Positions 8,187-49,218 of a stretch of DNA of 64,000 bases are shown in pieces. This stretch comes from a phage. The translations under genes and the position numbers were made by a program. The notes under the pieces were generated by a model. That model worked only from the letters and a program-made list of their open reading frames with translations. It did not search any database and had not been told where the DNA came from. Within the stretch, counting starts at the first letter, position 1. Each line of letters starts with the position of its first letter. Location: the sequence record PZ386972.1, one strand, 5' to 3'.

Positions 8187-8214
8187 TGCTTTTTACTGTA
8201 TATATTGGTATAAT
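8187..8214 (+). promoter_or_regulatory. T5-type early promoter (TTGCTT-16-TATAAT)
   Basis: Member of the dispersed promoter module family. Confidence 0.55.
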
Positions 8215-8287
8215 ATATTTGTAAGTTGATAAACAAGATCTTTTTGTTGATCCTCTGTTAGCGAAGTACACTATAGGAGTGTTATTT

Positions 8288-9040
8288 ATGGGAAAAGCAC
8301 GTCAAAAAAGAGAGAACCGCAATGGTTCAAGAAAGCGTGGCAACAAATATGAGAATAACGTAATTCAGGCTGATTTTTCTAATGATTACGCTAACCCAGT
8401 TGCTAAATCCCTAGTAGGTAAAAACCGCGAGCAAAAATCATATATCAATATGATCAAGAACAACACAGTGACTGTGGGTATCGGTGAGCCAGGTACTGGT
8501 AAAACCTTTATTCCGTCCGTTCTTGCAGCTCAGGAACTCGTAGACATTCACTCAGATATTGAGCAAGTGATCCTCGTACGTCCTAATGAACCTCTAGGTA
8601 AGTCTCTTGGTATGCTTCCTGGTGATCTAGCAGAAAAGCTAGAGCCTTGGTTGGAGCCAATAGCTGATGGTATGAAATGGGCCATCGGCGAACATGCCTA
8701 TAAGGGATATGTCGAACGTCAGAAAATTAAATTTTTGGCTATCGAACATGCTCGTGGCAGAACTTTCAACAACTCCTATGTAATTGTCGATGAAGCTCAG
8801 AATATTTCCGTTGAGGCAATGATTTGTCTCCTAACTCGTGTAGGACAAGACTGCCGTTTAATTATCTGCGGAGATATAGCTCAGAAAGACATTAAAGGTG
8901 ACTCAGGTCTAGCACTCCTTATGGAAGTCTATGAGAAATACGAAAATGCCCCATTCTCAATGATCGAATTGATTGATAACGTTCGTTCTGTTGAGTCTAA
9001 AGCATTCTATGACATCTTTAAAGACATGGGGAAGGTGTAA
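8288..9040 (+). CDS. phoH: PhoH-like ATPase
   Basis: Walker A GEPGTGKTF and PhoH-like body; start moved to ATG 8288 with AGGAG RBS (track gives GTG 8279). Confidence 0.8.
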   Translation: MGKARQKRENRNGSRKRGNKYENNVIQADFSNDYANPVAKSLVGKNREQKSYINMIKNNTVTVGIGEPGTGKTFIPSVLAAQELVDIHSDIEQVILVRPNEPLGKSLGMLPGDLAEKLEPWLEPIADGMKWAIGEHAYKGYVERQKIKFLAIEHARGRTFNNSYVIVDEAQNISVEAMICLLTRVGQDCRLIICGDIAQKDIKGDSGLALLMEVYEKYENAPFSMIELIDNVRSVESKAFYDIFKDMGKV

Positions 9041-9041
9041 T

Positions 9042-9263
9042 ATGGGAAACGTCGTTCATCTGAGCCGTAAAACTAAAATACATCGTACTTCACTGAGTGC
9101 TGCTAATATGATTACACGTAAGGAAGGGGAAGAAAGTCCTAAGACAACCCTAGCGTGGAAAATTGTAACCTCAAATCCAAATAAACCATTCAATTATAAC
9201 GAGCTGAGCACCTCCATAGATATTCTATTAAAAGAAGTAGCTAGAGCTAAAGTAATTGAATAA
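9042..9263 (+). CDS. hypothetical protein
   Basis: ORF track 8973..9263; internal ATG 9042 preferred because it avoids overlap with phoH. Confidence 0.35.
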   Translation: MGNVVHLSRKTKIHRTSLSAANMITRKEGEESPKTTLAWKIVTSNPNKPFNYNELSTSIDILLKEVARAKVIE

Positions 9264-9405
9264 GCTAAAAAGCTAGACTGGTAATATACAGGGCCTGGGT
9301 ATGAAAATACTCGGGCCTTTTCTATCAGAAAATTTTATTTGCCTAATGACCGATAATAAAGTAGAATATTCCTTAAATCCTGATAACTATAAAAAGGAAA
9401 GCCAA

Positions 9406-11736
9406 ATGAGCCATCGCATTGAAAAAGTAATTAAACGTGACGGTACTGTAGAAGACTTTGCTCCTGAAAAACTCAATGGTTGGGCAGAGTATGGTTGCAA
9501 AACAGTTGATGTAAGTTGGTCCGCCATTACTATGGCTGCTCAAAAAACGCTACCTAAAGGGGTTGTAGATTCCGACACTCTGATGGACGCATTAATTAAA
9601 GCTGCTGAAAGTCTTATCAAAGATAACCCAGCATACGATGTGCCAGCAAAGGAATTACGTCTTGCGCAAATGCGTAAACGCCTTTATGACTCTTTCGAAC
9701 CGCCTTCTCTACGCTTCTTCCATGACCACATGGTTAGCGTAGGTGCATGGGAAGACATGAGTGCATGGATTACCGATGAGCAATTTGAAGCTCTGAATCA
9801 GGTTATCGACCATGATCGTGACCGTCTTTTTACTAGTGGTGGGCTGAAGCAGTTCTTTGATAAGTATTCCCGTCGTAACATAGCCACTGGTGAAATTTAC
9901 GAAACTCCGCAGTTTGCCTACATGGGTATGGCAATGGCGATGCTATCTCAACCTAACTGGACAATTCTAGATGCAATCGACCTCTACAACGCAATGTCAC
10001 TCCACAAAATCAACGTTCCTACGCCGCCACTGGTTGGTCTGCGCTCTAGTGACCGTGGATTTGCTAGTTGCTGCCTCGTGGATTCCACTGACACGTTGGA
10101 TTCAATCGACACCGCCGAGCACATCGTCTTCAAAATGGTCGCAGCCAGAGCGGGAATCGGGTATCATCTTGAAAGCCGATCAATTGCTGATCCGGTGCGA
10201 AATGGGGCATTCCCGCATTCCGGAAAACTGCCATATTATCGACACATTGACCGCTCAGTAAAGGCCAATACTCAGCAAACTCGTGGTGGTTCTGCTACAG
10301 TATCTTATCCATACTTCGACCCTGAAATCATTCAATTGATGCAGGTTAAGCAACAACGTGCTACAGATGAGAATAAAATCGATAAGATGGATTATTCTCT
10401 GAGCTTTAACAACCTTTTGTTAAAACGTTATCTTAAAAACGAAGATATTACGCTAATGTCATACTTCTATGCTCCAGAAGTTCATGAAGCGTTTTATAGT
10501 GATGACGAGGCTAAATTTGAAGAAATCTACGTGGCAGCGGAGAAACGTGTGGCATCTCTTACAAAGATCGACCACGAAGGAAAAACAGTTCCTGCAGCTC
10601 CTAAAGTCTCTGCAAAAGAAATCCTAGATACTTGGCTACGTATCCGAATGGAAACAGGACGTATGTATGCTCACCACATTGGAGAATCTAATCGTCACGG
10701 TAACTTCCTTGATCCGATCCGTATGACAAACCTTTGTGTTGAAATTACTCAGCCTACACGCCCGTTCCATCACATTACAGAGCTGTACAAGACAAAAGAG
10801 CAGCTTGATCAAATGAAGCCGGAGGATATTGGTGAAGTATCTCTGTGTAACTTAGGTGGTGTTGTACTTGGACGCATGGAATCTCTGGCTGAGTGGGAAA
10901 AAACTTGCTACATCCTTCTGAAATTTGTTGACACAATTATTGAAATTCAGGATTATCCGTTCCCAACTATGGAATATACGGCTAAGAAACGTCGTAATGT
11001 TGGTATTGGCCTGATGAACGCAGCGGGTGCAATGGCAGCAGAAGGTCTGGCTTACGAAGGTATTGAAGCCCGTAACTGGATTCACCGTGAGGCTGAAAAA
11101 CTGTCTTACTTCCTGCATAAAGCCTCTGTACGCCTGGCTAAAGAACAGGGTGCATGTGAGTGGTTTGATCGTACTAAACCATCTAAAGGAATTCTAGTAA
11201 TCGACACGTATAAGAAAACTGTTGATGAACTGGTATCCGTAGGTCTAGAAATGGATTGGGAGTCTCTACGTGCAGATATTCTGAAATATGGTATGCGTAA
11301 CTCTGTTCTGACTGCTCAGATGCCGGGAGAAAGTTCTTCTGTTCTGCTAGGAGTTACTAACTCTATTGAACCGCCTCGTAAGATTGTATCTATCAAGGGT
11401 AGTGCAGTGAATAAAGTAATTGCAATTGCTCCGGGTGCAACCGATTGGGAAACGTTAATGAGCTATAAACTGGCTTATGATGTAGATCGTATCGAGTGGA
11501 TCAAATGGGTAGCAACTATGCAAAAATTCTTCAGTCAGTCTATCAGTACGAATATGTACTATGACTACACCAAGTTTGAGAATGAAATCATTCCTGGCCC
11601 AGTAGTAGTTCGTGATTTCATGACTGCTGTTAAGTATGGGTGGAAAACTTTCTACTATGCAAACTTCAATACCGCAAATGGTGGAGGTGCTGGAGAAGAA
11701 GCAGCCGGTTGTGCATCCGGTGGTTGTACTATTTAA
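9406..11736 (+). CDS. nrdA: ribonucleoside-diphosphate reductase alpha subunit (class Ia)
   Basis: ATP-cone N-terminus, NLCVEI active-site region, C-terminal CASGGC; start at ATG 9406 with AAGGAAAG RBS (track start 9301 probably too early). Confidence 0.9.
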   Translation: MSHRIEKVIKRDGTVEDFAPEKLNGWAEYGCKTVDVSWSAITMAAQKTLPKGVVDSDTLMDALIKAAESLIKDNPAYDVPAKELRLAQMRKRLYDSFEPPSLRFFHDHMVSVGAWEDMSAWITDEQFEALNQVIDHDRDRLFTSGGLKQFFDKYSRRNIATGEIYETPQFAYMGMAMAMLSQPNWTILDAIDLYNAMSLHKINVPTPPLVGLRSSDRGFASCCLVDSTDTLDSIDTAEHIVFKMVAARAGIGYHLESRSIADPVRNGAFPHSGKLPYYRHIDRSVKANTQQTRGGSATVSYPYFDPEIIQLMQVKQQRATDENKIDKMDYSLSFNNLLLKRYLKNEDITLMSYFYAPEVHEAFYSDDEAKFEEIYVAAEKRVASLTKIDHEGKTVPAAPKVSAKEILDTWLRIRMETGRMYAHHIGESNRHGNFLDPIRMTNLCVEITQPTRPFHHITELYKTKEQLDQMKPEDIGEVSLCNLGGVVLGRMESLAEWEKTCYILLKFVDTIIEIQDYPFPTMEYTAKKRRNVGIGLMNAAGAMAAEGLAYEGIEARNWIHREAEKLSYFLHKASVRLAKEQGACEWFDRTKPSKGILVIDTYKKTVDELVSVGLEMDWESLRADILKYGMRNSVLTAQMPGESSSVLLGVTNSIEPPRKIVSIKGSAVNKVIAIAPGATDWETLMSYKLAYDVDRIEWIKWVATMQKFFSQSISTNMYYDYTKFENEIIPGPVVVRDFMTAVKYGWKTFYYANFNTANGGGAGEEAAGCASGGCTI

Positions 11737-11745
11737 TAAAAACAA

Positions 11746-11769
11746 GGAGATCTTCGGGTCTCCTTTTTC
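11746..11769 (+). terminator. rho-independent terminator after nrdA
   Basis: GGAGATC-TTCG-GGTCTCC hairpin followed by TTTTTC. Confidence 0.6.
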
Positions 11770-11782
11770 TTTGAAATTTTAC

Positions 11783-11811
11783 TTGCTAATCGCTACCAGA
11801 TTTGCTATAAT
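11783..11811 (+). promoter_or_regulatory. T5-type promoter (TTGCTA-17-TATAAT) immediately upstream of HNH gene
   Basis: Seen in sequence. Confidence 0.5.
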
Positions 11812-11817
11812 ATTTAT

Positions 11818-12315
11818 ATGAAATTAACACAGAGTAGATTAAAAGAGCTAATCTCCTATGATCCTGAAACTGGTGAATTTACCTGGCTTCCAAGAAAAAA
11901 TTTAGCAAAGCATTTATGGAACGCTAAAGCAGGAACCTACGATAAGCTAGGGTATCTTCGTATAAAAGTGGAAGGAGTTCAATACTTAGCTCATCGCCTA
12001 GCCTTCTTGTATATGACTGGAGAAATACCAGAAGGAAAAATTGACCATAAAGATACTAATCCGTCCAATTGTGCCTGGAATAATCTACGTGAAGCCACGA
12101 GTTCCCAAAATTCTATGAACTCATGCGCAAGAGTGGATAACCAGCTTGGAATGAAAAATATTCGTGTAAAAGGCAATTCATTTCAGGTTAGGATAGGCAA
12201 AGACGGTAAATCTTATACAAAAACTTTAAAAACCATAGAAGAAGCTATAGAGTGGAGAGATACCAAACTACTAGAACTTCATGGGGACTTTGCAAACAAC
12301 GGAGAAGCTAAATGA
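11818..12315 (+). CDS. HNH homing endonuclease inserted between nrdA and nrdB
   Basis: 165 aa; HNH-like KDTNPSNCAWNNLREATSSQNSMN region; overlaps nrdB start by 4 nt. Confidence 0.7.
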   Translation: MKLTQSRLKELISYDPETGEFTWLPRKNLAKHLWNAKAGTYDKLGYLRIKVEGVQYLAHRLAFLYMTGEIPEGKIDHKDTNPSNCAWNNLREATSSQNSMNSCARVDNQLGMKNIRVKGNSFQVRIGKDGKSYTKTLKTIEEAIEWRDTKLLELHGDFANNGEAK

Positions 12316-13457
12316 CTACTTTACTTAACTTAGAATGGGATCATACTAACGCTGATCTTTTCCTCGGTGATTCTTTGGGTATCGCAGATTATGTGCGTGT
12401 GGCACATCCCGAACTGGAGCGATTAGCTCTGTTGCAGCGTTCCCAATTCTGGACTGAAACTGAAATTAGTCTTGAAGCTGATAAAAAGCAGTGGGGTAAT
12501 CTCCCGCGTGAAATTCAGGAAATTACACTCCTGAACTTAGCATGGCAAACTCAAACTGATTCCTTTATCAGTCGTGCCCCTGAAGCAGCTATTATGCCGC
12601 TTGTAAGTCGTCCAGAATTGGAAGGTATGCTCAAGCAGTGGAGCTACTTCGAAGATCTGCATAGCCGTGCATATAGTAATATTATTCGTAATGTGCTGAC
12701 TGATCCAGCAGAATTTATTGATTCTGTAACCAAAAACCAGGAAGCATTCGCACGCATCGCTGATTCTGTTGAACTATTCGATGAACTGTATCAGTTAGGT
12801 CAGTATTTCATCGCAGTACGCGATCATCGTGGTGACAATACATATCCAGAAACTGAGTTCCCTGAAGTTAAACGTGAAACTCAGGCTAAACTATTAGACG
12901 CTTACTTTGCGATCTATGGTCTGGAAGCAATGCAGTTTTACGCATCCTTTGCATGTACCTTTGCATTAGCAGAGAACGATATTCTGCAAGGTATTGCTAA
13001 AAATCTGCAATTAATCGCTAAAGATGAAGCTCTGCACACTCAGATGTCCAAAGCAATCATCCAGATTATGTTCCAGCAGTTTGACAAAGATCTGGTGAAT
13101 GAAGCAGTGGCTAAAGCACCAGCACAGCTCCTGAAAACTCTGAAAACTGAAATTGAATGGGGTCATTTCATTTTCAAAGGTCGTAGTCTGATTGGCTTGA
13201 ATGCAGAACTTCTAGAAGAATATCTGTACTTTGTGGGGCGTAATGCATTTATGCACATCGGTGTAGAATGGCCTAGTCATTTACCAGTAATCACCAAGAA
13301 CCCCATTCCGTGGATCATGAACTGGCTGGATACCACTTCTTTACAGCCTGCTCCACAAGAAATCCAGATTGGTGCAGCATATCGTGTAGGTCAGGTAACT
13401 GAGACCTCTACTGATACTCTGAAAGATCTGGGTAATGAATTTGGAGATTTCTTATGA
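12312..13457 (+). CDS. nrdB: ribonucleoside-diphosphate reductase beta subunit
   Basis: 381 aa ferritin-like R2 protein, position directly after nrdA. Confidence 0.85.
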   Translation: MTTLLNLEWDHTNADLFLGDSLGIADYVRVAHPELERLALLQRSQFWTETEISLEADKKQWGNLPREIQEITLLNLAWQTQTDSFISRAPEAAIMPLVSRPELEGMLKQWSYFEDLHSRAYSNIIRNVLTDPAEFIDSVTKNQEAFARIADSVELFDELYQLGQYFIAVRDHRGDNTYPETEFPEVKRETQAKLLDAYFAIYGLEAMQFYASFACTFALAENDILQGIAKNLQLIAKDEALHTQMSKAIIQIMFQQFDKDLVNEAVAKAPAQLLKTLKTEIEWGHFIFKGRSLIGLNAELLEEYLYFVGRNAFMHIGVEWPSHLPVITKNPIPWIMNWLDTTSLQPAPQEIQIGAAYRVGQVTETSTDTLKDLGNEFGDFL

Positions 13458-13987
13458 TTACAGCAATGTATGCAGTTGGGCCGAATGGAGAGTTCGGCCT
13501 CCGCGGTAAACTTCCCTGGGGTTCCTTCAAAGAAGAACTAGATGCCTTCTATTCTCAACTGGACGTGTTGAATCCAGATAACATCATCATTGGTGCTGGT
13601 ACTTATTTAGCTCTTCCATACGCCGTTAGGGAACGTATGATTGGAGCTTCTGATCTATTTATTCGTGCTGATCGTCCACTGCCAGACGATATTACGCATG
13701 ATATTTACACCCCAATTTCAAAGATTGGGGATACATTACCTACTTTTCTAAAAGATCAGCAAACAGTAGTTCTAGGTGGAGCTAATCTTCTTCTAGAAAT
13801 GTACCAACATGGGCATATAGAAAGTGCTTTTGTATCTACAATCTTTAGCGAACAGAAGCTAGAGGCAGATATACACCTAGATAGTATGATACTGGATTAT
13901 AACTATGAATCCACCCGATTAGTCTATGCAGTTGGCGCAAACAGTGATAACAGCCTGCGATTTGTACAGGAATTGGTTACTTATTAA
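13454..13987 (+). CDS. dihydrofolate reductase
   Basis: 177 aa; N-terminal AVGPNGEFGLRGKLPW matches the DHFR NADPH/folate-binding region. Confidence 0.75.
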   Translation: MITAMYAVGPNGEFGLRGKLPWGSFKEELDAFYSQLDVLNPDNIIIGAGTYLALPYAVRERMIGASDLFIRADRPLPDDITHDIYTPISKIGDTLPTFLKDQQTVVLGGANLLLEMYQHGHIESAFVSTIFSEQKLEADIHLDSMILDYNYESTRLVYAVGANSDNSLRFVQELVTY

Positions 13988-14826
13988 TGCAACAATATTT
14001 AAAAATTTTGACAGATGTAATTTTACTAGGTGAACCCCGTAATGACCGTACAGGAACAGGCACAGTTTCAATTTTTGATTCCTATGCTAAGTTCGACCTA
14101 CGTGAAGGGTTCCCGGCTGTAACTACCAAACGCCTGGCCTGGAAATCAGTAGTAGGAGAACTTTTATGGTTCTTGTCTGGTTCCACAAATCTTCATGATC
14201 TACGTGTATTCACATTCGGTCGTGACGAAGGACAGTGGACCATCTGGACTCCAAATTATGAAGACCAAGCCATAAGTATGGGGTATGATAAGGGTAATCT
14301 AGGACCAGTATATGGTAAACAGTGGCGTAACTTTGGTGGGCGAGATCAGATTCTAGAACTTATTGAAGGACTCAAGAATAATCCTCATGGCCGCAGACAT
14401 CTAGTTTCTGCATGGAACGTAGCTGAACTTGATAAAATGGCATTACCACCCTGTCACTACGGCTTCCAGTGCTATGTAAGTAACGAGGGATACCTAGACC
14501 TTAAATGGACACAACGTTCTGTAGATTGTTTCCTCGGTTTACCTTTCAATATTGCTAGTTATGCTTTATTAACGCATATATTAGCAAAACTGACAGGGTT
14601 AAAACCTCGTTATCTTATCTTTAGTGGCGGTGATACTCATATCTATAATGACCACATGGAACAGGTAGAAGAACAGGTAAAACGTAAACCTCGTGCTTTA
14701 CCTACTCTAGTAATGCCAGAGTTTGTAGATCTTTACGATTTATTAGAAAATAATACAGCAGCTTGGTCCTTCCAGCTTGAAGGATATGATCCGCATCCGG
14801 CTCTTAAAGCTAAAATGTCCTCTTAA
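13987..14826 (+). CDS. thyA: thymidylate synthase
   Basis: 279 aa; ThyA motifs WFLSG and active-site PCHYGFQCYV. Confidence 0.9.
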   Translation: MQQYLKILTDVILLGEPRNDRTGTGTVSIFDSYAKFDLREGFPAVTTKRLAWKSVVGELLWFLSGSTNLHDLRVFTFGRDEGQWTIWTPNYEDQAISMGYDKGNLGPVYGKQWRNFGGRDQILELIEGLKNNPHGRRHLVSAWNVAELDKMALPPCHYGFQCYVSNEGYLDLKWTQRSVDCFLGLPFNIASYALLTHILAKLTGLKPRYLIFSGGDTHIYNDHMEQVEEQVKRKPRALPTLVMPEFVDLYDLLENNTAAWSFQLEGYDPHPALKAKMSS

Positions 14827-14832
14827 CTTAAA

Positions 14833-14856
14833 TAGCCCTTCGGGGCTATTATATTT
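14833..14856 (+). terminator. rho-independent terminator after thyA
   Basis: AGCCC-TTCG-GGGCT hairpin followed by AT-rich run. Confidence 0.55.
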
Positions 14857-14865
14857 AAATTTCAT

Positions 14866-14894
14866 TTGCTTATTTAGTGAAATCTAAATATAAT
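14866..14894 (+). promoter_or_regulatory. T5-type early promoter
   Basis: TTGCTT-17-TATAAT inside conserved module. Confidence 0.6.
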
Positions 14895-14919
14895 ATATTT
14901 TATAAATTGGAGGTATACA

Positions 14920-15201
14920 ATGATTTCAGCCAAAGAAGCTCAAGAACTTGCAGGATTAACAGAAGTACCCGCATTTCTAAAGTTTATAGAAGAAAAGATT
15001 GTAGAAGCTGCTAAGTCTGGAAATACAGAAGTAATTATTCGAGATAATCCTTACGCTAGGTGGCTATATAATCCTAGAGAAATGCCAGGAGCAGCTAAAT
15101 CGGTACTAAAAACCTTATCGGATAAGGGGTATCATCTCTCACAATACTACCGAGAAGCCGCCTTTGTAGACATGGGTCTTAAAATTAGTTGGGAGGTATA
15201 A
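14920..15201 (+). CDS. hypothetical protein
   Basis: ORF track, RBS GGAGG upstream. Confidence 0.45.
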   Translation: MISAKEAQELAGLTEVPAFLKFIEEKIVEAAKSGNTEVIIRDNPYARWLYNPREMPGAAKSVLKTLSDKGYHLSQYYREAAFVDMGLKISWEV

Positions 15202-15677
15202 TGTCGGTTTTCCACATTTATACAGATGGTGCTTGTAAGTCTAATCCAGGTCCAGGTGCTTGGGGTTTTATTGTCTATGATGATAACGACGATCGTTTAG
15301 GTTCTAAATCTGGATATAGTCCTAAAACTACAAATAATGAGATGGAACTCACGGCTATTGTAGAAGCTCTACGTTGGTCTGTTAAAAAAGATAATAGACC
15401 AATTGCTATCTATACTGACTCTGCTTATTGCAAAAATGGCATGGAAAGTTGGATGTTTTCTTGGCAAAGGAAAGGCTGGAAGAAAGCAGATGGTGAAGTC
15501 CCTCTTAATCTAGAACTTTGGCAGGAAGCATTTAAATTAACACAGCAGTATATCAACTTTCACAATACTAATCCTACCTTTATTAAGGTTAAAGGACATT
15601 CTGGTATTAGTGGTAATGAAGCTGTAGATGCATTGTGTAACACAGTTATTACTGAGGCTGAAATGGCCGAGATGTGA
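15201..15677 (+). CDS. rnh: ribonuclease H
   Basis: HIYTDGACKSNPGPGAWGF and later DSAYC/HSG motifs typical of RNase HI; start taken at ATG 15201 with GGAGG RBS. Confidence 0.8.
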   Translation: MSVFHIYTDGACKSNPGPGAWGFIVYDDNDDRLGSKSGYSPKTTNNEMELTAIVEALRWSVKKDNRPIAIYTDSAYCKNGMESWMFSWQRKGWKKADGEVPLNLELWQEAFKLTQQYINFHNTNPTFIKVKGHSGISGNEAVDALCNTVITEAEMAEM

Positions 15678-15697
15678 TAAATAAATTAAAAATTTTC

Positions 15698-15726
15698 TTG
15701 CTTAAAGCCACCTAATTTAGTATAAT
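15698..15726 (+). promoter_or_regulatory. T5-type early promoter
   Basis: TTGCTT-17-TATAAT. Confidence 0.6.
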
Positions 15727-15753
15727 ATTCGTATTGAAAGTGAGGAGGGCTTT

Positions 15754-41398: not shown

Positions 41399-41403
41399 TA
41401 AAC

Positions 41404-41437: not shown

Positions 41438-41439
41438 AC

Positions 41440-41468: not shown

Positions 41469-41495
41469 ATTTATATAAATTGACCGGAGGATTAA

Positions 41496-41741: not shown

Positions 41742-42607
41742 TTATGAAAAAAGAATTTAATGTACATAAAACTCTAGTAGTGCCGGATGATGCCAACTTG
41801 TTTTTCGTTGGTGATATTCATGGATGCAACGATTTGCTAGAAGATGCGTTGAAATTAGCTGGGTATAATAGCAAAAAAGATTGCGTAGTATGTGTTGGTG
41901 ATTTAATTGACCGAGGCACGCAAAACCTACAAGTTTTAGCCAAATTCCTGTATAATCCACGCTTTATCAGTGTCCGTGGTAATCATGACCAATTTATGAT
42001 TGTGGGAGATTGGGCTAATTGGATGTATAATGGCGGTATGTGGGCCATGAATGAACTAGATGCAGACACCATTAAAAATATTGCCGAAGATATGGCTGAA
42101 AAAATGCCAGTATTCCTAACTGTTAGACATCGTGGTAAGAAGTTTGGTGTTGTTCATGGTGGTGTACCTTTTACATACAAAGAATGTGGTAATGAAGTAG
42201 AAACCCCAGTATGGGATAATCTTATTGCACAAGTAGAAGCAACTAAGGAAGACCCACATGACCATCCGGGATACCATGTTGAACCATATTTATGGGATCG
42301 AGATGTAATCCAAGAAATAGGCTTCTACTTGTCCAAAAATGGTGAGGAACACCCATATTTCCAGCGTTATGCAGGATTTAAAGAAAAATACATGGTAGAA
42401 GTGCCAGAAGTTAAAGGGGTAGATTTCGTATTTCACGGGCATACTGGGGTCCCTTACCCGCTTCTTTATAAAAACCGTGTTTATCTTGATACTGGCGGTG
42501 TTTTCAACGGGCAGTTGACGGTTGCGCAGGTTAATGATGAAACGGGCAAAATCACCACATTTACTACACTCCGGGAAGATAGCTGTGGTGTACAGAGGAT
42601 TCTTTAA
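41732..42607 (+). CDS. Ser/Thr protein phosphatase-like metallophosphoesterase
   Basis: GDIHG, GDLIDRG and GNHD motifs of the calcineurin-like phosphoesterase fold. Confidence 0.65.
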   Translation: MGIIMKKEFNVHKTLVVPDDANLFFVGDIHGCNDLLEDALKLAGYNSKKDCVVCVGDLIDRGTQNLQVLAKFLYNPRFISVRGNHDQFMIVGDWANWMYNGGMWAMNELDADTIKNIAEDMAEKMPVFLTVRHRGKKFGVVHGGVPFTYKECGNEVETPVWDNLIAQVEATKEDPHDHPGYHVEPYLWDRDVIQEIGFYLSKNGEEHPYFQRYAGFKEKYMVEVPEVKGVDFVFHGHTGVPYPLLYKNRVYLDTGGVFNGQLTVAQVNDETGKITTFTTLREDSCGVQRIL

Positions 42608-42906
42608 TGAATGATAGAATGAAAGAAGTACGAGAAGAATTACGAGCAATGCGTATTGATGCCCTTCGTTGGAGGGCATTAGTTAATGCTTTCGTCAAAG
42701 GAGATACTGGGGTAATATATTCTGGGATAGCAGTCAATTTTTGTTTTAATTCTCCTACTGAAATAGAGGTAGAAACAAGGCTTACTACCTATCTTAATGA
42801 GGTAGACCTTAAGGAAGGAGAGACTTCCGAGGAGTTTAAAACCAAAGTGTTAACCTCTTGGGTTGATAGTTTAATACAGAATAAGGAAAAGAGTAATGAA
42901 AGTTAA
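42607..42906 (+). CDS. hypothetical protein
   Basis: ORF track. Confidence 0.4.
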   Translation: MNDRMKEVREELRAMRIDALRWRALVNAFVKGDTGVIYSGIAVNFCFNSPTEIEVETRLTTYLNEVDLKEGETSEEFKTKVLTSWVDSLIQNKEKSNES

Positions 42907-43486
42907 ATTCTGGTCAGACTTGCACCTAGACCACCCTGGAGCGTTACGTTTCCGTCCGTGGTTTAAGAACATGAAGGAGCACGATGAGTATATTCTAGAC
43001 ACTTTGTCCAAGCATATTGGTAAACGAACAAAACTTATTTTGCTAGGGGATATTGCAGTAGGTCGTGAAGGTCTGGCCAAATTAAAGTCGGTTATCCACA
43101 ATGTTCCTAACCAACTTATAATGGGCAACCACGATGCGGAACGTCAAGGACTGAGTATTAGGGACTTAGCAGAAGTTTATGACGATATTCAGGCTCTAGG
43201 TAAACAGACTGGAGGCGGCAAAAAGTTTTGGCTATCTCACTGCCCTTTGCACCATAATGAACTTCGTGGCAAACTAAATATTCACGGACACGTACATACT
43301 ACTTCTCTACGTGATCCACGTTATATCAATGTCTCATTTGAAATGAGTAAAACTCCAATTCCACTAGAAGATATTGTGTCTGGTAAGTTTACTAGTTATG
43401 ATAGAGTAGTTAATTGTACTACCGGCGAGGTATTACAAATAGGGGAAGACGTAGCTGCTGTATTGCGTGGTGATATAAATGTCTGA
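42896..43486 (+). CDS. second calcineurin-like metallophosphoesterase
   Basis: SDLHLD, GDIAVG, GNHD and GHVH motifs. Confidence 0.55.
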   Translation: MKVKFWSDLHLDHPGALRFRPWFKNMKEHDEYILDTLSKHIGKRTKLILLGDIAVGREGLAKLKSVIHNVPNQLIMGNHDAERQGLSIRDLAEVYDDIQALGKQTGGGKKFWLSHCPLHHNELRGKLNIHGHVHTTSLRDPRYINVSFEMSKTPIPLEDIVSGKFTSYDRVVNCTTGEVLQIGEDVAAVLRGDINV

Positions 43487-43594
43487 GTATATAGCTGAGG
43501 CTATTATTAAACGAATTATACAAGCGGTAGCAATACTTATAATCATTTGTATTGCTATTGGCACAGGATTAGGCATTTTAATTAAAAGTTTTAT

Positions 43595-43623
43595 TTGCTA
43601 AAATGCTTAAGTTTCTGTATAAT
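43595..43623 (+). promoter_or_regulatory. T5-type early promoter
   Basis: TTGCTA-17-TATAAT. Confidence 0.6.
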
Positions 43624-43653
43624 TACTTTATAAATTGATGAGAAGGAATCAAA

Positions 43654-44082
43654 ATGAACAAAGTTGATAAAGCTCTAGTTTTCGCAGCAGCAGATAAGTT
43701 TGAACAAGTTAAGGCAACTTTCCGAACCTTGTTCCAGTCTTACGTTCAGGATAAGTCTAACCCTATCTCTGAACGTTTGATGGTCTGGGAATGTTACGCA
43801 ACTGATGCCCTATTAATGGCAGATTACAGAGGTGAGGCAGACGAAGAGATCGAAGAACTCTTTGCTGAAGAAGCACCACGTTACCAGGCAGTTTATTTCC
43901 AGGATCTAGCTGAACGCATCATTCCTGATGATCTTTGGGACAAATACTATGGCAATCCTGAAGATGATGGAATGACACCAGAAGCGTGTATTGAGCTGAT
44001 CTGCAAAGATCATCCTGAAATCGCAGAAAAATTTGAGCAAGTATTGGCTTCTGAGTTTTCAGGTTTCGTTAACGATTGGTAA
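43654..44082 (+). CDS. acidic hypothetical protein
   Basis: ORF track. Confidence 0.45.
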   Translation: MNKVDKALVFAAADKFEQVKATFRTLFQSYVQDKSNPISERLMVWECYATDALLMADYRGEADEEIEELFAEEAPRYQAVYFQDLAERIIPDDLWDKYYGNPEDDGMTPEACIELICKDHPEIAEKFEQVLASEFSGFVNDW

Positions 44083-44099
44083 GTAATTAAAAAATTCAG

Positions 44100-44128
44100 T
44101 TGCTTTAAGCCTTAAAATTCTGTATAAT
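44100..44128 (+). promoter_or_regulatory. T5-type early promoter
   Basis: TTGCTT-17-TATAAT. Confidence 0.6.
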
Positions 44129-44142
44129 AAGTTCATAAATTA

Positions 44143-44412
44143 ATGAGAGAGGAAATTCTAATGGAAAACATGACTAAAAATGAAATGGCTAACGTTCTGG
44201 CAATTCTCCTCGACATGCAGGGTTTTGAGGGCCAGCTCATGAAGATGTCTATTCCGGCAATGAAAAAGATGTATGATTCCCTGAATAAGAATGCTATGGC
44301 GTTCAACCTCGCAAAACAGGAAGCACGTTTTGCGAAAGAACATCAGGCGACTGCCGAACGCCGTGCAGCATCTTTTGAGCGTGAAGTTAAGCAACTGAAA
44401 GGTAAGAAATAA
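44143..44412 (+). CDS. hypothetical protein
   Basis: ORF track. Confidence 0.4.
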   Translation: MREEILMENMTKNEMANVLAILLDMQGFEGQLMKMSIPAMKKMYDSLNKNAMAFNLAKQEARFAKEHQATAERRAASFEREVKQLKGKK

Positions 44413-44575
44413 TGGAAAGAGTATCAATTTCAATACTGTCATTCCTTATAGGAGTACTAATATATAATATGGTTGCTCTTAACATACACTTAACTGAAGT
44501 AGACAAGTCTCTTCATGAGCTAAATGTAGAGATTTGCAAAGTAACTCCAAATAACGAAAAATGTAAGGGTATTTA

Positions 44576-44857
44576 ATGTTAATTGAAATTCTTATTGGAC
44601 TGCTAGTGCTTATGACACTAGCAGCGATTGGTGGAATTATTGGTATTGTAAGCATACGAAAAAATATGGAAGGTATGCTCATTACTAACAGCGGATTGCA
44701 CCACCGTTTACTAGAGCAAGAACAAGATATTGAACTGGCCCAAAGACGCTCAGATATTCTTAAAGAAAAGTTAAATAATATTGAAGTAATAGTTGGAAAT
44801 AATAAATTACCTGCTAAAGTAATGCGTGCGCAGATAATTACGGAGATTAAAAAATGA
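44576..44857 (+). CDS. membrane-anchored coiled-coil protein
   Basis: ORF track; N-terminal TM helix. Confidence 0.4.
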   Translation: MLIEILIGLLVLMTLAAIGGIIGIVSIRKNMEGMLITNSGLHHRLLEQEQDIELAQRRSDILKEKLNNIEVIVGNNKLPAKVMRAQIITEIKK

Positions 44858-45099
44858 TGATGTTTATTCTCGCATTTTATTTAGTTGTGGTTGGTGTACT
44901 AGTTACTAAATACCACACATGGACACCAAAGAATGTAGCTAAGGTAGCTTTATTTGTTATTCCAGTACCTTTTATTATCTTCTCTATGTTACTGGTAATG
45001 CTAATTGGTAAAGTAACAAAAACCGATGTTAAACGTATTGCTGATGAATTGCAACAGTCTTGTGATATGGTAGAGGATATTATTAAAGATGAAGCTTAA
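44854..45099 (+). CDS. small membrane protein (2 TM)
   Basis: ORF track. Confidence 0.4.
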   Translation: MMMFILAFYLVVVGVLVTKYHTWTPKNVAKVALFVIPVPFIIFSMLLVMLIGKVTKTDVKRIADELQQSCDMVEDIIKDEA

Positions 45100-45415
45100 T
45101 TTTAATGAATTAAATACCTTACATGAGATATTACAGTTTGTGAATAATAATATTAGTATTCCGGATGATACAGTAGAAGTTCTCAAGATAATTGAGAAAA
45201 AAGTAGGAATTGAGATTGAGGACTCCTGGAAGCCACTTTCTGTATTAACACCTCTTAATATGAAAGTGATAGTTAAAAATATTGATACTGGTGAAGAATG
45301 TGAAATGATTCGTAAAGAACTAGCTGATAGCTATTCACCAAAGTCTGTAGTAATGTACCATGATGATACCGCTAAGATTCTACAGACAGCTAATTACGTA
45401 TGGCGTCTCCCATGA
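45089..45415 (+). CDS. hypothetical protein
   Basis: ORF track. Confidence 0.4.
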   Translation: MKLNFNELNTLHEILQFVNNNISIPDDTVEVLKIIEKKVGIEIEDSWKPLSVLTPLNMKVIVKNIDTGEECEMIRKELADSYSPKSVVMYHDDTAKILQTANYVWRLP

Positions 45416-45514
45416 TTGATTTAGTACCAATTACTGCGGGGCTAATAGCACTATTAGTGCTCGCAGTTTTTATTATTGTGGAGCAGGCCAAAGTAATAAG
45501 GAGACTTAAAAACA

Positions 45515-45715
45515 ATGATTGATTTTTATAACCCTAACATTCCCACAGCAGCAACAGAGTATTGTGTATTGCTCCCTTTTGCCGCTCTGTTAGCAGCACT
45601 CTTTAATATAGTTTTTAAAACAATAGGTCTAGATGTTCCTCCATATTATATTTCTGACCTCATTCCTTATATGTATGAGATGCTTCCAGTAGCGTTTAAT
45701 GGAGTTCGTAAATGA
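45515..45715 (+). CDS. small membrane protein
   Basis: ORF track. Confidence 0.35.
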   Translation: MIDFYNPNIPTAATEYCVLLPFAALLAALFNIVFKTIGLDVPPYYISDLIPYMYEMLPVAFNGVRK

Positions 45716-46173
45716 CAGCACTACAACAACTACAGAATTACTGGTTTGATAATCAATTTAACGATCTCTTTATCCAGTTATTTGTCGAAACGAACGGACG
45801 CTTCAACTACCGATTCTTTAATAAGTTTCACGAAACAAAATTCTCTCATACAGAAATTAATGCAGCGATCCAAGACCTAACGGGTTCTAAAGTAATTCAG
45901 TATCGTGAAGTAGACTTCACACCAGATTGTTTTGGGTTTGAATTGTTTAAGAAAGCGTATAAATTTGGTAAGTTTGAGGATGCTCGTCAATGGGTTCACG
46001 ATTTCTGGTACAACACTGATATTGTTCCTAGTCGTGTACTGATTCTTAACTGGATTGCTAAACAACATCCACCTAAAATGCAGTCATCCTTCTTACCAAC
46101 TGACACAGGAAACCTCTACCATGACAGAAAAGAAAAATCCATTGCTGGAGCAGATGAAGGAATGGGAGAGTAA
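45712..46173 (+). CDS. hypothetical protein
   Basis: ORF track. Confidence 0.45.
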   Translation: MTALQQLQNYWFDNQFNDLFIQLFVETNGRFNYRFFNKFHETKFSHTEINAAIQDLTGSKVIQYREVDFTPDCFGFELFKKAYKFGKFEDARQWVHDFWYNTDIVPSRVLILNWIAKQHPPKMQSSFLPTDTGNLYHDRKEKSIAGADEGMGE

Positions 46174-46492
46174 TATTGAATCTGGTCTAGTAGACGGAGA
46201 AGATATTGTTAACTCTATGCTAGAAATAACAATAGATAATGTTAACCCTATCTTGGCCAGTGAAACCTCAGATCTTATAGGACTTTCTAGTACTTTCGAT
46301 TCTTTAGCTAAATTAGCTTTAGATAATGAAGAGATAACCAAAGAAGATCTCGCCTCAGCTATGAATATGGCTATTAACGCTTACATTGGCAAACGTACCG
46401 ATGAACTTGACAAACAAATCAAAAAGCGTGATACAACGTTAAATCTTATGGAAACGGCCACTATTTTAAGAAGTGGTAAACAACTTCATTAA
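46121..46492 (+). CDS. acidic hypothetical protein
   Basis: ORF track 46055..46492; internal ATG 46121 preferred. Confidence 0.4.
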   Translation: MTEKKNPLLEQMKEWESNIESGLVDGEDIVNSMLEITIDNVNPILASETSDLIGLSSTFDSLAKLALDNEEITKEDLASAMNMAINAYIGKRTDELDKQIKKRDTTLNLMETATILRSGKQLH

Positions 46493-46498
46493 TTTTAG

Positions 46499-46530
46499 AG
46501 GCCAGGACTTAATTGTTCTGGCCTTTTGTG
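46499..46530 (+). terminator. rho-independent terminator
   Basis: AGGCCAGGA...TCTGGCC hairpin then TTTTGTG. Confidence 0.6.
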
Positions 46531-46750
46531 TTTCAAGGAACTTCAAATGCAAGTATATGTCCTTACTAGAGATATAAATGAGTATAATCAGGATGGTGAG
46601 TATTTTGTAAAAGTATTCGCTGAAAAGCCAAGTAAACAACAATTATTAGATGCTGGAGTACCAGAAGACCAGGCTAAGTGTATACTACAAGATAAAGAGT
46701 TTACTGGTGATGCTTACGAATGTTTCTACCTTAGCTGTGAGAATATCTAA
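46526..46750 (+). CDS. hypothetical protein
   Basis: ORF track. Confidence 0.4.
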   Translation: MCFKELQMQVYVLTRDINEYNQDGEYFVKVFAEKPSKQQLLDAGVPEDQAKCILQDKEFTGDAYECFYLSCENI

Positions 46751-47192
46751 TATGAGAGAAAAAGTAAATGAATTACTAATCAAGGAAGCTAACAACTTTC
46801 CAATAAATAGATTCATCAAATCGGATGGATCTATTAATAGAACTAAGATTAAGCAGCTACATCCCGACTTTCAACAAGAAGCACTAAACCTTATATTTAT
46901 CAAGAAAGCTGTTGCAGCTCATGGAGCTTTCTTTGGGTATGAGCGTGTAAATTACAAAACAATGCAACAGCAAGTAGAAATCTATTGTCCAGATCATGAA
47001 GGATATTACTGGCAAACTGCTAGATCTCATTTAGAAGGGCACGGTTGTCGACTGTGTGCACACAAGGTTGTGCAGCGTGTCACGGATTATGGAACTTATA
47101 CCGTACCAGCATGTTATCATAAATTTGTAATTGACGATAATCACATAGTTTGGTATAATAAGTTTTCAAAGTTAAGAATGGAGATAAAATAA
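46751..47192 (+). CDS. hypothetical Cys/His-rich protein (possible nuclease or DNA-binding)
   Basis: Internal start of track ORF 46650..47192; CPDHEG...HGCRLCAH cluster. Confidence 0.35.
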
Positions 47193-47377
47193 TGGAAACT
47201 CTTTTTATTTTAATGCTAGTAGGTTCCTTGCTAGTTATACTAGCACTTCTATTTATTTGCAGTCTTCTTAATAAAGAGAACCTAGAGTTAAAGTGTGAGA
47301 ACCAAATCCTTAATCGTGAACTTGAACAATATAACCTAGCAGCCCATAAACTGTTAGACAAACTGGAGAATAAATAA
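47192..47377 (+). CDS. small membrane protein
   Basis: ORF track. Confidence 0.4.
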   Translation: METLFILMLVGSLLVILALLFICSLLNKENLELKCENQILNRELEQYNLAAHKLLDKLENK

Positions 47378-47982
47378 TGACTTTTAATGCACAACAATCT
47401 ATTCAAGTAGTACCGGATCATGAATTGAATACGTGGGATTATAGCTTTAAAGATTTAACTGCTACTGTACAATTCAAATCTATGAAGCTAACATTTGCAC
47501 ACGCTGACATTAGCGCCTGTAAAGATCTTGAAAGTAAGCTCGAAGATGCTCGTAAGATTTTTGGTACGGCTCGCATCCCCGCTGATAACCTGATTAATGC
47601 ACTGATCGATGCAGGGTACAAACTCGTGAAGACCGAGGTGAACCGCCCTAGTACTCCAGTGACTATTAGAGATCCGTGGCAATCAGGGTCAATCGCACTG
47701 TTAAATAAATCATCGGATTTGCACAATATTCCATGCGGTGGTACGCTGTCATCTAACCAATCCTATCGAGTTGGGGAAGATTATGGCCCTTCTGTACAGT
47801 TGAAACATACTCAAGAAGCTTTTGAATCTGATATGCGAAGCGTAGCACCTGCGGATGCTGGAGTTTCTAGGAGTTCTGTTTGTACTATTCATTTTAATAA
47901 TCCTGGTAAACATGGAAGTTTAGAGGATGCTATTATGGAGGCGTTGGGAGCTGCTATTAACGAGAGTAAAAAAGATCAATAA
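47377..47982 (+). CDS. hypothetical protein
   Basis: ORF track. Confidence 0.45.
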   Translation: MTFNAQQSIQVVPDHELNTWDYSFKDLTATVQFKSMKLTFAHADISACKDLESKLEDARKIFGTARIPADNLINALIDAGYKLVKTEVNRPSTPVTIRDPWQSGSIALLNKSSDLHNIPCGGTLSSNQSYRVGEDYGPSVQLKHTQEAFESDMRSVAPADAGVSRSSVCTIHFNNPGKHGSLEDAIMEALGAAINESKKDQ

Positions 47983-48054
47983 AGATCGTTAACTAATTTA
48001 TAGGTCTACGCCTCTCCAGACCTTTTATTAGGGGAGGCACATTAGGAGAATAAT

Positions 48055-48438
48055 ATGTTACATTACACAATCGCATTAAATCGTCAAATAACTAGTCAAA
48101 CTCGTGTTATCATTCGTGAGCTGGATGCAAATAGAGTCCATCCAGAAGAGGAGGGAATAATCATAGAAGTATCTTTAGTTACTAATGGAGTGGATGAAGT
48201 AATCTATGAATCTCAAGCCTTAGCTGTACATCAGGTTGAAGATGCAAAAAAGATCCTAGAGATTTTGGTAGAAGAAATCATAAAGCTCAAACCTAATCGT
48301 AAGATCTTCAAAGAGTCTTTTATTAATGAACTGCGTTATATCCAGAATACTGCTGATTACTTAAGTTTTGAGTTCTTTACTGCTCACTACAATTCACTAG
48401 AAGATTTCTATCCGGCAGACAAAGTTCAGGAGGCTTAA
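48055..48438 (+). CDS. hypothetical protein
   Basis: ORF track. Confidence 0.45.
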   Translation: MLHYTIALNRQITSQTRVIIRELDANRVHPEEEGIIIEVSLVTNGVDEVIYESQALAVHQVEDAKKILEILVEEIIKLKPNRKIFKESFINELRYIQNTADYLSFEFFTAHYNSLEDFYPADKVQEA

Positions 48439-48439
48439 T

Positions 48440-49171
48440 ATGAGTATTAGTGAGAATTTAAAGACTATTATTAAGCTGGCTAAGAATGCAGACGGCAAAT
48501 GTGTTTCTGAACTAACTCCTGATGAAGCTCATGCAGTAGCATTCTGTTCTGAGTTTCATCCCGCAGCTTATACAGAAGCTGGAATTGTTAAATATAATAA
48601 AGAAGAAAAATTCGTAACTCTATCTCCTTCTTATATTGCAATGAGAAAGATCATCAATTCTGTTGGTGATAAGATTGTAGGGTTCAAGGCAGATTCATAT
48701 CATGTCTTTGCAGATCAGGAACTTCCAGTATTTAAAGAAGGAAATGTTAGAGTTGCACTAGAATTATATCCCGAGGAAAAGTTCATTCCACCTAAACGTT
48801 GTGAATATGATCATCTTCCTAGACTCCAAAGAAAAGATACTGGATTCCCTTATACAAAAGATGAAGTGTTGCTAGGGATTGCTTCTACGATTGCGCAGGT
48901 TCATCTATGTCTCGAAAAGAACCTAGAGATGCCATTAATCTTACAGTCTGCACATAAAGCAATGTTAAATGACTGGGATCAATTCTTTAAGATTATAGGA
49001 GCTGTCGGATTAGCACGTTTACTTCCTGCATTTGAGAACTCTGAAGTATTTGGCGAAGGTTCTTTCGGAACTGTAGATTATGATGCGCTAAAATCCCCAC
49101 ACTCCTATCTTGCAACTTTTCTCTTCATGGTCTCGAAGGGTATCGTTCTCAAATACAAGCGGAAGGAATAA
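48440..49171 (+). CDS. hypothetical protein
   Basis: ORF track. Confidence 0.45.
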   Translation: MSISENLKTIIKLAKNADGKCVSELTPDEAHAVAFCSEFHPAAYTEAGIVKYNKEEKFVTLSPSYIAMRKIINSVGDKIVGFKADSYHVFADQELPVFKEGNVRVALELYPEEKFIPPKRCEYDHLPRLQRKDTGFPYTKDEVLLGIASTIAQVHLCLEKNLEMPLILQSAHKAMLNDWDQFFKIIGAVGLARLLPAFENSEVFGEGSFGTVDYDALKSPHSYLATFLFMVSKGIVLKYKRKE

Positions 49172-49188
49172 ACGTTAACAAAATCTTC

Positions 49189-49218
49189 TTGACAACTCAT
49201 TAAGGTACATGTTATAAT
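49189..49218 (+). promoter_or_regulatory. promoter TTGACA-18-TATAAT directed into the gene-poor repeat locus
   Basis: Consensus hexamers; downstream 1.3 kb has no convincing plus-strand ORF. Confidence 0.5.

Follow-up and report, generated by a model that had tools for sequence, protein, structure and literature searches.

The window, i.e., the whole 64,000-nucleotide stretch of sequence record PZ386972.1 analysed here, is DNA of a T5-like phage (Tequintavirus). It is 85–97% identical to T5 and T5-like phages and is reversed in orientation relative to the T5 reference. Dispersed through it are repeated units of 60–70 bp, which we list below together with one promoter-like site outside the family. 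Predicted +1 positions were carried over from the T5 annotation; the 75-nucleotide T5 features that were checked (P-N25 and P-H207) span −55 to +20, and +1 is the A of ATAAAT.

2949..3018, minus strand: family promoter; −10 at 2981..2976, predicted +1 at 2968; nhmmer E = 6.5e-10; ortholog of an unnamed T5 promoter, 58999–59073
5964..6033, minus strand: family promoter; −10 at 5995, predicted +1 at 5983; terminator hairpin directly upstream; ortholog T5 55708–55782
8171..8241, plus strand: family promoter; −10 at 8209, predicted +1 at 8221; degenerate box, GTAAGTTGA; ortholog T5 53638–53712
11768..11838, plus strand: family promoter; −10 at 11806; 3′ of terminator hairpin 11744–11765
14851..14921, plus strand: family promoter; −10 at 14889, predicted +1 at 14902; hairpin upstream; ortholog T5 46937–47011
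15683..15753, plus strand: family promoter; −10 at 15721; weak box; ortholog T5 46337–46411
16478..16548, plus strand: family promoter; −10 at 16516, predicted +1 at 16529; ortholog T5 P-H207, 99% over 113 nt
18349..18419, plus strand: family promoter; −10 at 18387; ortholog T5 44393–44467
19676..19746, plus strand: family promoter; −10 at 19714; ortholog T5 43067–43141
20516..20586, plus strand: family promoter; −10 at 20554; ortholog T5 P-D/E33
21189..21259, plus strand: family promoter; −10 at 21227; ortholog T5 P16-17; ahead of an RNAX-like region and tRNA-Arg
23664..23734, plus strand: family promoter; −10 at 23702; ortholog T5 P15b; tRNA-Ser from +9
24875..24946, plus strand: family promoter; −10 at 24914; 18-bp spacer; ortholog T5 P15c
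25247..25317, plus strand: family promoter; −10 at 25285; ortholog T5 P14a; tRNA-Tyr at +58
26452..26522, plus strand: family promoter; −10 at 26490; ortholog T5 P14b
28506..28576, plus strand: family promoter; −10 at 28544; ortholog T5 P13a; tRNA-Pro at +24
29011..29081, plus strand: family promoter; −10 at 29049; ortholog T5 P13b; stable-RNA region, then tRNA-Ala and tRNA-Leu
31605..31675, plus strand: family promoter; −10 at 31643; ortholog T5 P11
33939..34009, plus strand: family promoter; −10 at 33977; ortholog T5 26722–26796
36064..36134, plus strand: family promoter; −10 at 36102; terminator hairpin upstream; ortholog T5 24443–24517
40607..40677, plus strand: family promoter; −10 at 40645; −35 TTGACT; lowest profile score; ortholog T5 19368–19442
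41425..41495, plus strand: family promoter; −10 at 41463; T-run of hairpin 41404–41431 replaces the A-tract; ortholog T5 18550–18624
43580..43650, plus strand: family promoter; −10 at 43618; ortholog T5 P-F30
44085..44155, plus strand: family promoter; −10 at 44123; top profile score; ortholog T5 16245–16319
49188..49217, plus strand: promoter-like site, not a member; TTGACA-18-TATAAT; profile E = 1
61668..61737, minus strand: family promoter; −10 at 61699, predicted +1 at 61687; ahead of an 88-amino-acid lipoprotein ORF, 61396–61662

The promoter at 8171..8241 heads the rightward early region as its first unit. In the copy with its −10 at 25285, the −35 hexamer is overlapped by an inverted repeat.

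A motif count in the window with AAAAATTCATTTGCT, allowing at most three mismatches, gives 28 occurrences against 7.6 expected, and the composite pattern TTGCT-N16-18-TATAAT-N5-9-ATAAAT occurs 15 times where none is expected. Using these 15 composite-pattern sites as seeds, we iterated an nhmmer profile, which finds 25 matches in the window (E ≤ 2.8e-6); the next match has an E-value of 0.013. A generic sigma-70 scan of the window shows no excess over shuffled sequence (59 versus 54.6; 61 versus 62.7), and the generic consensus was therefore rejected as a definition of the family, which is distinguished by its extended consensus. The initial annotation had described about 25 near-identical modules between 8187 and 49218. 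Their number is borne out by the profile, but the near-identity is not: the 60-nucleotide cores average 55% pairwise identity (range 28–85%; random 60-mers, 26%). The range is right for the 22 plus-strand copies (8171–44155), whereas three minus-strand copies (−10 at 2981, 5995 and 61699) lie outside it, and the site at its far end (49188–49217) is a promoter of another type, without the A-tract. The modules were also said to follow often upon a terminator hairpin. This overstates the case, although an adjoining hairpin with a T-run is clear directly upstream of five of the 25 copies (5995 on the minus strand, 11806, 14889, 36102 and 41463); at the minus-strand copy 2981, a hairpin and T-run lie about 45 nucleotides upstream.

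When aligned, the copies do yield an extended consensus, consisting of an A-tract, TTGC(T/A)(T/A), 17 bp, TATAAT, a discriminator and a downstream box, with little information upstream of −50. All 25 copies have an exact TATAAT. The −35 hexamer begins with TTGC in 24 of them (TTGACT at 40645), and the spacer is 17 bp in 24 (18 bp only at 24914); no copy combines a consensus −35 with its TATAAT. An A occupies each of the positions −45 to −42 in 21–23 of the 25 copies; in two exceptions these positions are taken by the T-run of a terminator. The first position after the −10 hexamer is A, and the fourth is T, in 92% of copies each, and the discriminator is exactly ATATT in eight of 25. The common downstream box, ATAAATTGA, lies at predicted +1 to +9: at least seven of its nine positions match in 21 of the 25 copies, and predicted +7 is T in every one. 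Degenerate boxes are found at 8209, 11806, 15721 and 25285. From predicted +1 to +20, purines make up 70% (background 53%) and C 5.4% (background 17.6%).

The proposed promoter function is well founded. By position, at least 23 of the 25 copies correspond to orthologous promoters annotated in the RefSeq T5 genome (NC_005859), and in the first 80 kb of T5 all 32 profile matches fall on annotated promoters, including P-N25, P-N26, P-K28a, P-H207 and P-D/E33. Beyond 80 kb in full-length T5, the sole match is the llp promoter. The copy at 61699 resembles the arrangement of this promoter, and the 88-amino-acid lipoprotein ORF behind it would, judging from layout and lipobox only, be llp-like. The T5 early promoters come from the same phage group, occupy the same genome positions, are 84–99% identical to the window copies and share their architecture (A-tract, TTGCT, 17 bp, TATAAT, ATATT-like discriminator, ATAAATT). 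The differences are at strain level only: T5's P15a, P12 and P10a are absent from the window, and different genes are inserted beside several promoters. The profile also finds about 19 module occurrences in Klebsiella phage Sugarland, which belongs to another genus. T5-like loci carry 0.53–0.76 profile matches per kb, all on the gene strand, and about 270 kb of unrelated phages yield none. In a scan of a sequence collection with the exact extended pattern, the contigs among the matches listed are mostly 90–128 kb long.

The early promoters of T5 were mapped and sequenced in the 1980s, and reportedly are the subject of Gentz and Bujard 1985; the T5/N25 promoters of expression vectors and promoter-escape studies derive from them. 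The 25 modules are thus the strong early promoters of a T5-like phage, and the observation is correct but already known. It carries little weight as a discovery, since the promoters are annotated in the T5 reference genome. One by-product is a profile that picks out the family cleanly, even in relatives without promoter annotation such as Sugarland.

The downstream box had been noted as a conserved element of a shared 5′ leader, and it is indeed real. Judged by mismatch rates among orthologs from up to 28 relatives, it is as conserved as the −10 and −35 hexamers: the rate is 0.010 for +1 to +9, 0.001 for the −10 hexamer and 0.002 for TTGC, versus 0.086 in the spacer, 0.065 in the discriminator and 0.04–0.07 in the flanks. 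The box is therefore under purifying selection across natural variants and at tRNA promoters, and this constraint, equal to that of the two hexamers, is a second by-product of the analysis. The box lies 6–8 nucleotides 3′ of the −10 hexamer, while the start codons vary in position from +19 to +35. It is retained at the promoters of tRNA-Ser (+9), tRNA-Pro (+24), RNAX and a stable RNA. Because its register is fixed to the −10 hexamer and not to the start codons, and because promoters of tRNAs and stable RNAs retain it, we regard it as initially transcribed sequence (ITS). At protein genes it runs directly into the Shine-Dalgarno sequence (GAGAGG), so that these mRNAs have a common short leader.

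We consider it highly probable (about 0.9) that the modules are T5-like early-class promoters used by the host sigma-70 RNA polymerase, and that the box is an initially transcribed sequence that aids escape. They would be read by the host's own enzyme with sigma-70. Each stacks an A-tract (AAAAAT at about −45 to −40) resembling a proximal UP element, a non-consensus −35 hexamer TTGC(T/A)(T/A), an A/T-rich spacer of 17 bp, a perfect TATAAT and an A/T-rich discriminator (consensus ATATT), and these upstream elements would bind polymerase very tightly. Transcription would then start with a purine-rich and C-poor sequence, A-T-A-A-A-T-T-G-A from +1, and the conserved box at +1 to +9 would allow the tightly bound enzyme to escape quickly with little abortive cycling, as at P-N25. 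With about one promoter per 1.9 kb, the early region is split into short units of one or several genes or tRNAs.

Several properties of known promoters bear on this reading. The box ATAAATTGA is nearly the same as the sequence at the same +1 to +9 positions of N25, ATAAATTTG, and the initially transcribed sequence of N25, reportedly studied by Kammerer et al. 1986 and the Hsu laboratory, is likewise purine-rich and C-poor (PMC12464699). In T5 N25 this region has been assigned to promoter escape (PMC12464699, PMC5961368); escape is the limiting step of this promoter and is accelerated by its native ITS, whose mutation slows escape and increases abortive synthesis (PMC12464699). Changes in the ITS shift in vivo strength more than 10-fold (Kammerer 1986, cited in PMC5961368). 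A function in escape has been measured for N25 and engineered variants only; for the 25 copies we infer it by analogy with P-N25, and the transcription starts likewise come from the literature. Initiation there by the E. coli holoenzyme, with early timing, is predicted from the T5 orthologs. As to the A-tract, its location at about −45 to −40 is that of the proximal UP subsite in sigma-70 promoters of the rrnB P1 type. Only the proximal part is conserved in the window copies, and an UP-like role is suggested by sequence. Canonical and spacer UP elements have been described for N25 (PMC12464699), and the early promoters of T5 have in common an A-rich block around −43, described as an UP element, and ATATT as discriminator (Klimuk 2020, PMC7472727, Fig. 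S5).

The conservation of the box, with an invariant T at +7 and persistence in a distant genus, exceeds what a merely A/T- and purine-rich start would need, and a second, sequence-specific role is therefore possible. One candidate is a class-specific address, formed by discriminator and box, by which a phage factor times or shuts off early transcription, escape being secondary. The factor might be gpT5.026, which binds RNA polymerase, or D5, which binds DNA. Such an address is compatible with the escape explanation, but we hold it to be unlikely. The box is limited to early-class promoters: annotated late (P-G25, P-J5, oad) and pre-early (P-H22) T5 promoters have a −35 of the TTGACA/TTGATA type and no box. 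It is base-exact across the 25 copies, between orthologs and in Sugarlandvirus. Moreover, gpT5.026 weakens the contact between polymerase and discriminator, and the early-specific ATATT has been proposed as the discriminating signal (Klimuk et al., PMC7472727). However, the effect reported for gpT5.026 in vitro does not exceed two-fold (PMC7472727), exact ATATT occurs in just eight of the 25 copies, no factor is known to bind ATAAATTGA, and P-N25 and P-H207 need no phage factor for strong activity, whether in uninfected E. coli or in other bacteria (PMC6127294, PMC12464699). That the two elements form an early-class code for a conserved factor, read in DNA or nascent RNA and setting timing or shut-off, is a reading that we also hold to be unlikely; if it is right, the box is more than a sequence that favors escape. 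The initial annotation had proposed a function in RNA, the box being an A/U-rich translation enhancer or processing site in the common leader. Seventeen copies do have leaders of 18–34 nucleotides in which the box is directly followed by a GAGAGG-type Shine-Dalgarno sequence, and folding is slightly less stable in start regions next to a promoter than in internal ones (−2.6 versus −3.8 kcal/mol, p = 0.054). Against this, the box keeps its distance from the −10 hexamer but not from the start codons, it is present where no protein is made, and its exact copies in the window are found at promoters only (seven of seven at predicted +1 to +9 of modules). Shine-Dalgarno strength does not differ between promoter-proximal and internal genes (p = 0.12), and no Rfam family overlaps a module at any copy. 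An RNA-level element was set aside, as neither the folding nor the Shine-Dalgarno comparison is significant; the register of the box and its retention at tRNA and stable-RNA promoters leave the enhancer or processing site unsupported, and we think it improbable.

The modules had further been suggested to serve as homology patches for recombinational shuffling of gene cassettes, for which T4-type phages offer a precedent (PMC2839356). To this we give very little credence. We took as junctions the breakpoints of indels and replacements between the window and 28 relatives. At module edges they are about twice as frequent as at random (18 of 185 versus 4.7% expected, p = 0.003; examples are 11814, 14905, 16483, 21250, 26527, 28565, 29016 and 31608), but the excess disappears once gene boundaries are controlled for (17 of 129 boundary junctions versus 16.4% expected, p = 0.87). 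Similarly, a breakpoint is found in 15 of the 20 gene junctions with a module and in 54 of the 77 without one (Fisher p = 0.79). Of 743 segments 150 bp or longer, 384 found in the window only and 359 in a relative only, none has its ends in two different modules, and no module-to-module deletion or insertion appears even under relaxed chaining that allows overlapping alignments. Junctions mediated by repeats were detected at tRNA pairs and at 21.9–22.2 kb, not at modules, and the longest exact run common to two modules is 27 bp (median 9.5 bp). Breakpoints in the 28 relatives thus do not favor modules over other gene boundaries and never join two of them. The PeSLs of T4-type phages (Arbiol et al. 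2010, PMC2839356) are likewise dispersed strong sigma-70 early promoters, some with adjoining stem-loop terminators, in a region where small non-essential genes are densely packed. However, PeSLs are found at both ends of indels and give rise to mini-circles, whereas no indel joins two modules here; and PeSL units couple promoter to stem-loop, whereas about five of the 25 window copies have an adjoining terminator. A third by-product is thus that shuffling of cassettes through promoters finds no support in T5-like phages, in contrast to T4-type PeSLs. One apparent junction inside P15a, at 23140–23149, was rejected: it arises from BLAST extension through a chance TATAAT, the window being without P15a and the P12 operon.

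Finally, at the promoter with its −10 at 11806, the ATG of an HNH endonuclease ORF coincides with the predicted +1 (11818). Homing HNH endonuclease genes with their ATG at the promoter +1 may be transcribed into leaderless mRNAs in two genera.

A megablast search with window positions 16000-24000 matches 465 phage records at up to 96-97% identity, every one from a T5-like phage of Escherichia or Salmonella. Window 1-60204 is collinear, in reverse, with positions 62020..1 of the T5 reference (NC_005859) at 82-97% identity; the region 8187-49218 is therefore the T5 leftward early region, here on the + strand, and it includes the tRNA cluster (22 tRNAs by ARAGORN). The promoter modules scattered through it are the T5 early promoter family with its conserved transcribed region, which is already known and was rediscovered here from sequence alone.

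With up to 3 mismatches allowed, an upstream 15-mer is found at 28 places in the window, compared to 7.6 expected; the composite pattern TTGCT-N16-18-TATAAT-N5-9-ATAAAT has 15 matches, compared to 0 in shuffles. With these 15 sites as seeds, an nhmmer profile (one iteration) finds 25 matches at E <= 2.8e-6, while the next match reaches only E = 0.013, in agreement with the roughly 25 modules of the initial annotation. Since a generic sigma-70 scan of the window shows no enrichment over shuffles, the family is defined by its extended consensus. TATAAT is exact in every copy; TTGC in the -35 hexamer and a 17-bp spacer are each found in 24 of 25. The copies had been described as near-identical, but their 60-nt cores average 55% identity (range 28-85%; random 60-mers, 26%). 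The proposed range, 8187-49218, suits the 22 + strand copies (8171 to 44155), but three lie outside it on the - strand and the site at its end is of a different promoter type:

2981, - strand: -10 hexamer of a family copy (nhmmer profile)
5995, - strand: -10 hexamer of a family copy (nhmmer profile)
61699, - strand: -10 hexamer of a family copy (nhmmer profile)
49188-49217, + strand: TTGACA-18-TATAAT site, a promoter type other than the family (sequence)

The near-consensus site at 49188-49217 lies 3' of the last early ORF and is directed at the terminal-repeat boundary, with no ORF on the + strand beyond it; the two ORFs 5' of it (48055-49171) match neither T5 DNA nor Pfam. A position just after a terminator hairpin, said to be frequent, holds for five copies, with a hairpin and T-run immediately 5'; for a sixth copy the hairpin is about 45 nt away, on the 5' side, and the description is thus overstated. 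Twelve of the 22 modules on the + strand have the preceding gene's stop codon inside the promoter (e.g., 16478-16484, 20516-20522, 21189-21195, 31605-31611). Four of these 12 have a TAA within the A-tract at about -44, so coding sequence and UP-like element overlap. Two promoter-like sites in the divergent region at 8.0-8.2 kb, 8035-8073 (+) and 8126-8148 (-), have the A-tract and TTGCC/TTGCT without the downstream box; thus box-less relatives of the family exist. Their T5 counterparts are annotated promoters (53776-53850 and 53884-53958).

Promoter features in the RefSeq T5 record are 75 nt long; those of P-N25 and P-H207 cover -55..+20, +1 being the A of ATAAAT. The window-derived profile has 32 matches in T5 1-80 kb, and all 32 fall on annotated promoters:

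T5 1-80 kb, matched among others: P-N25, P-N26, P-K28a, P-H207, P-D/E33, P16-17, P15a-c, P14a/b, P13a/b, P11, P-F30

At least 23 window copies can be placed on annotated T5 promoter features through flanking homology (copy 16516 is the P-H207 ortholog, at 99% identity), which bears out the promoter function first proposed. The sole family match beyond 80 kb in T5 is the llp promoter; an 88-aa lipoprotein ORF follows copy 61699. Among 28 T5-like loci there are 0.53-0.76 family matches per kb, every one on the gene strand; unrelated phages with a lipoprotein gene in common have none in approximately 270 kb. In a 43-kb stretch of Klebsiella phage Sugarland (Sugarlandvirus), about 19 copies share the A-tract, TTGC, TATAAT and ATAAATTGATGAGAGG of the window modules, so the family extends past the genus; the record has no annotated promoter features in that stretch. 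An exact-pattern scan of IMG/VR finds at least 120 matching stretches, with contigs mostly of 90-128 kb among the matches listed. Contigs of two sizes, about 176-180 kb and about 90 kb, carry homologs of the lipoprotein gene 22139-23086 (75-80% amino-acid identity) and lack promoter modules, which suggests that this gene spread by horizontal transfer.

What is the downstream box? Alignment of all 25 copies, the check originally proposed, yields A-T-A-A-A-T-T-G-A at +1..+9 from the predicted start, with T at +7 in all 25, followed by a looser GATGAGAGG. The sequence ATAAATTGA has seven exact copies in the window, each at +1..+9 of a module. The box stands 6-8 nt after the -10 hexamer, while start codons are scattered from +19 to +35, and it is present at promoters without a protein product: tRNA-Ser (start +9), tRNA-Pro (+24), RNAX-like and stable-RNA. 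Mismatch per position, measured among promoter orthologs from up to 28 relatives, is 0.002 in TTGC, 0.001 in the -10 hexamer and 0.010 in +1..+9; the spacer (0.086), the discriminator (0.065) and the flanks (0.04-0.07) vary more. Positions +1..+20 are 70% purine, with 5.4% C against a background of 17.6%. The fixed spacing, the retention at tRNA and stable-RNA promoters, the low mismatch and the composition all agree with a promoter element that acts at the DNA level, in register with the polymerase, and not with a translation signal. The box is thus conserved and real, as first noted, but a role as translation enhancer or processing site is unsupported: no Rfam family overlaps any module, Shine-Dalgarno matches near promoters are not stronger than at internal genes (p = 0.12), and start regions near promoters are only marginally less structured (p = 0.054).

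The box is best explained as an initially transcribed sequence that would govern promoter escape. T5 N25 has UP elements and extremely stable open complexes, with escape as the rate-limiting step; with its native A/T-rich initially transcribed sequence, escape is fast and abortive products are few (PMC12464699). According to Kammerer et al. 1986 (cited in PMC5961368), strength in vivo shifts by over 10-fold when that region is altered. In an alignment of early and late T5 promoters, Klimuk et al. indicated the -35, -10, UP and ATATT elements (PMC7472727, Fig. S5); they made a suggestion for ATATT and gpT5.026 similar to the idea that discriminator and box form a class-specific regulatory signal. 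The annotated pre-early P-H22 and late P-G25, P-J5 and oad promoters of T5, with a -35 of TTGACA/TTGATA type, lack the box, which leaves room for such a signal. We regard it as unlikely, though compatible with a role in escape.

The modules had also been proposed to promote shuffling of gene cassettes, and this failed when breakpoints were mapped. We chained BLAST alignments of the window with 28 T5-like genomes (two sets of 20-kb loci), taking at least 20 unaligned bases as a junction. Modules contain 18 of 185 unique junction coordinates (12.5-47 kb; 4.7% expected, p = 0.003), but this enrichment disappears among gene-boundary junctions (17/129; 16.4% expected, p = 0.87). Breakpoints occur at 15 of 20 gene junctions with a module and 54 of 77 without (Fisher p = 0.79), and no segment of at least 150 bp joins two different modules (0/384 window-only, 0/359 relative-only). 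Permitting overlapping alignments, the signature of repeat-mediated events, brought out junctions of this kind at two tRNA pairs, Asp/Lys and Thr/Met, and at 21.9-22.2 kb, and none at modules. The longest exact run common to two modules is 27 bp (median 9.5 bp). Edges of inserted or replaced genes do lie at promoters (11814, 14905, 16483, 21250, 26527, 28565, 29016, 31608), but no more frequently than at other intergenic sites; hence the PeSL mechanism of T4-type phages, based on promoter-terminator cassettes (PMC2839356), is not supported in this T5-like phage. Mosaicism in T5-like phages has been ascribed mainly to homing endonucleases (PMC10644984).

Deletions in some relatives at 27425-27754 and 31343-32428 have 25-27 nt overlaps between different tRNA genes (Asp/Lys, Thr/Met), the mark left by recombination of tRNA genes with each other and not of promoters. 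Rfam places tRNAs above the gathering threshold at 21456-21527 and 23818-23892, one of them within the RNAX-like region, that ARAGORN does not call; conversely, ARAGORN's tRNA-Tyr (25354) and tRNA-Ala (29293) are missing from the Rfam list.

In the stretch 11806-12315 (+), the ATG of an HNH endonuclease ORF (Pfam HNH_3) coincides with the predicted +1 of the promoter (TATAAT ATTTAT ATG), and the ORF has no Shine-Dalgarno sequence, making its mRNA a candidate leaderless transcript. Sugarland has the same layout (L074 6669-7206), an HNH gene between nrdA and nrdB (TATAAT ATTCAC ATG) with no ribosome-binding site annotated immediately upstream, whereas T5 hegH, at the same site as the window gene, has a normal leader. 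At 23100-23200 the window lacks the T5 divergent P12 operon (T5 37841-39727) and promoter P15a; a TOPRIM/Rad-like gene (23183-23701) directly follows the lipoprotein terminator hairpin (23110-23141), and the sole promoter-like site 5' of it is a weak TGGAGA-16-TATAAT. Small genes missing from T5 are inserted at promoter/terminator edges (14920-15201, 16035-16484, 17139-17354); that at 16035-16484, for a NADAR-domain protein, lies just 5' of the P-H207 ortholog.
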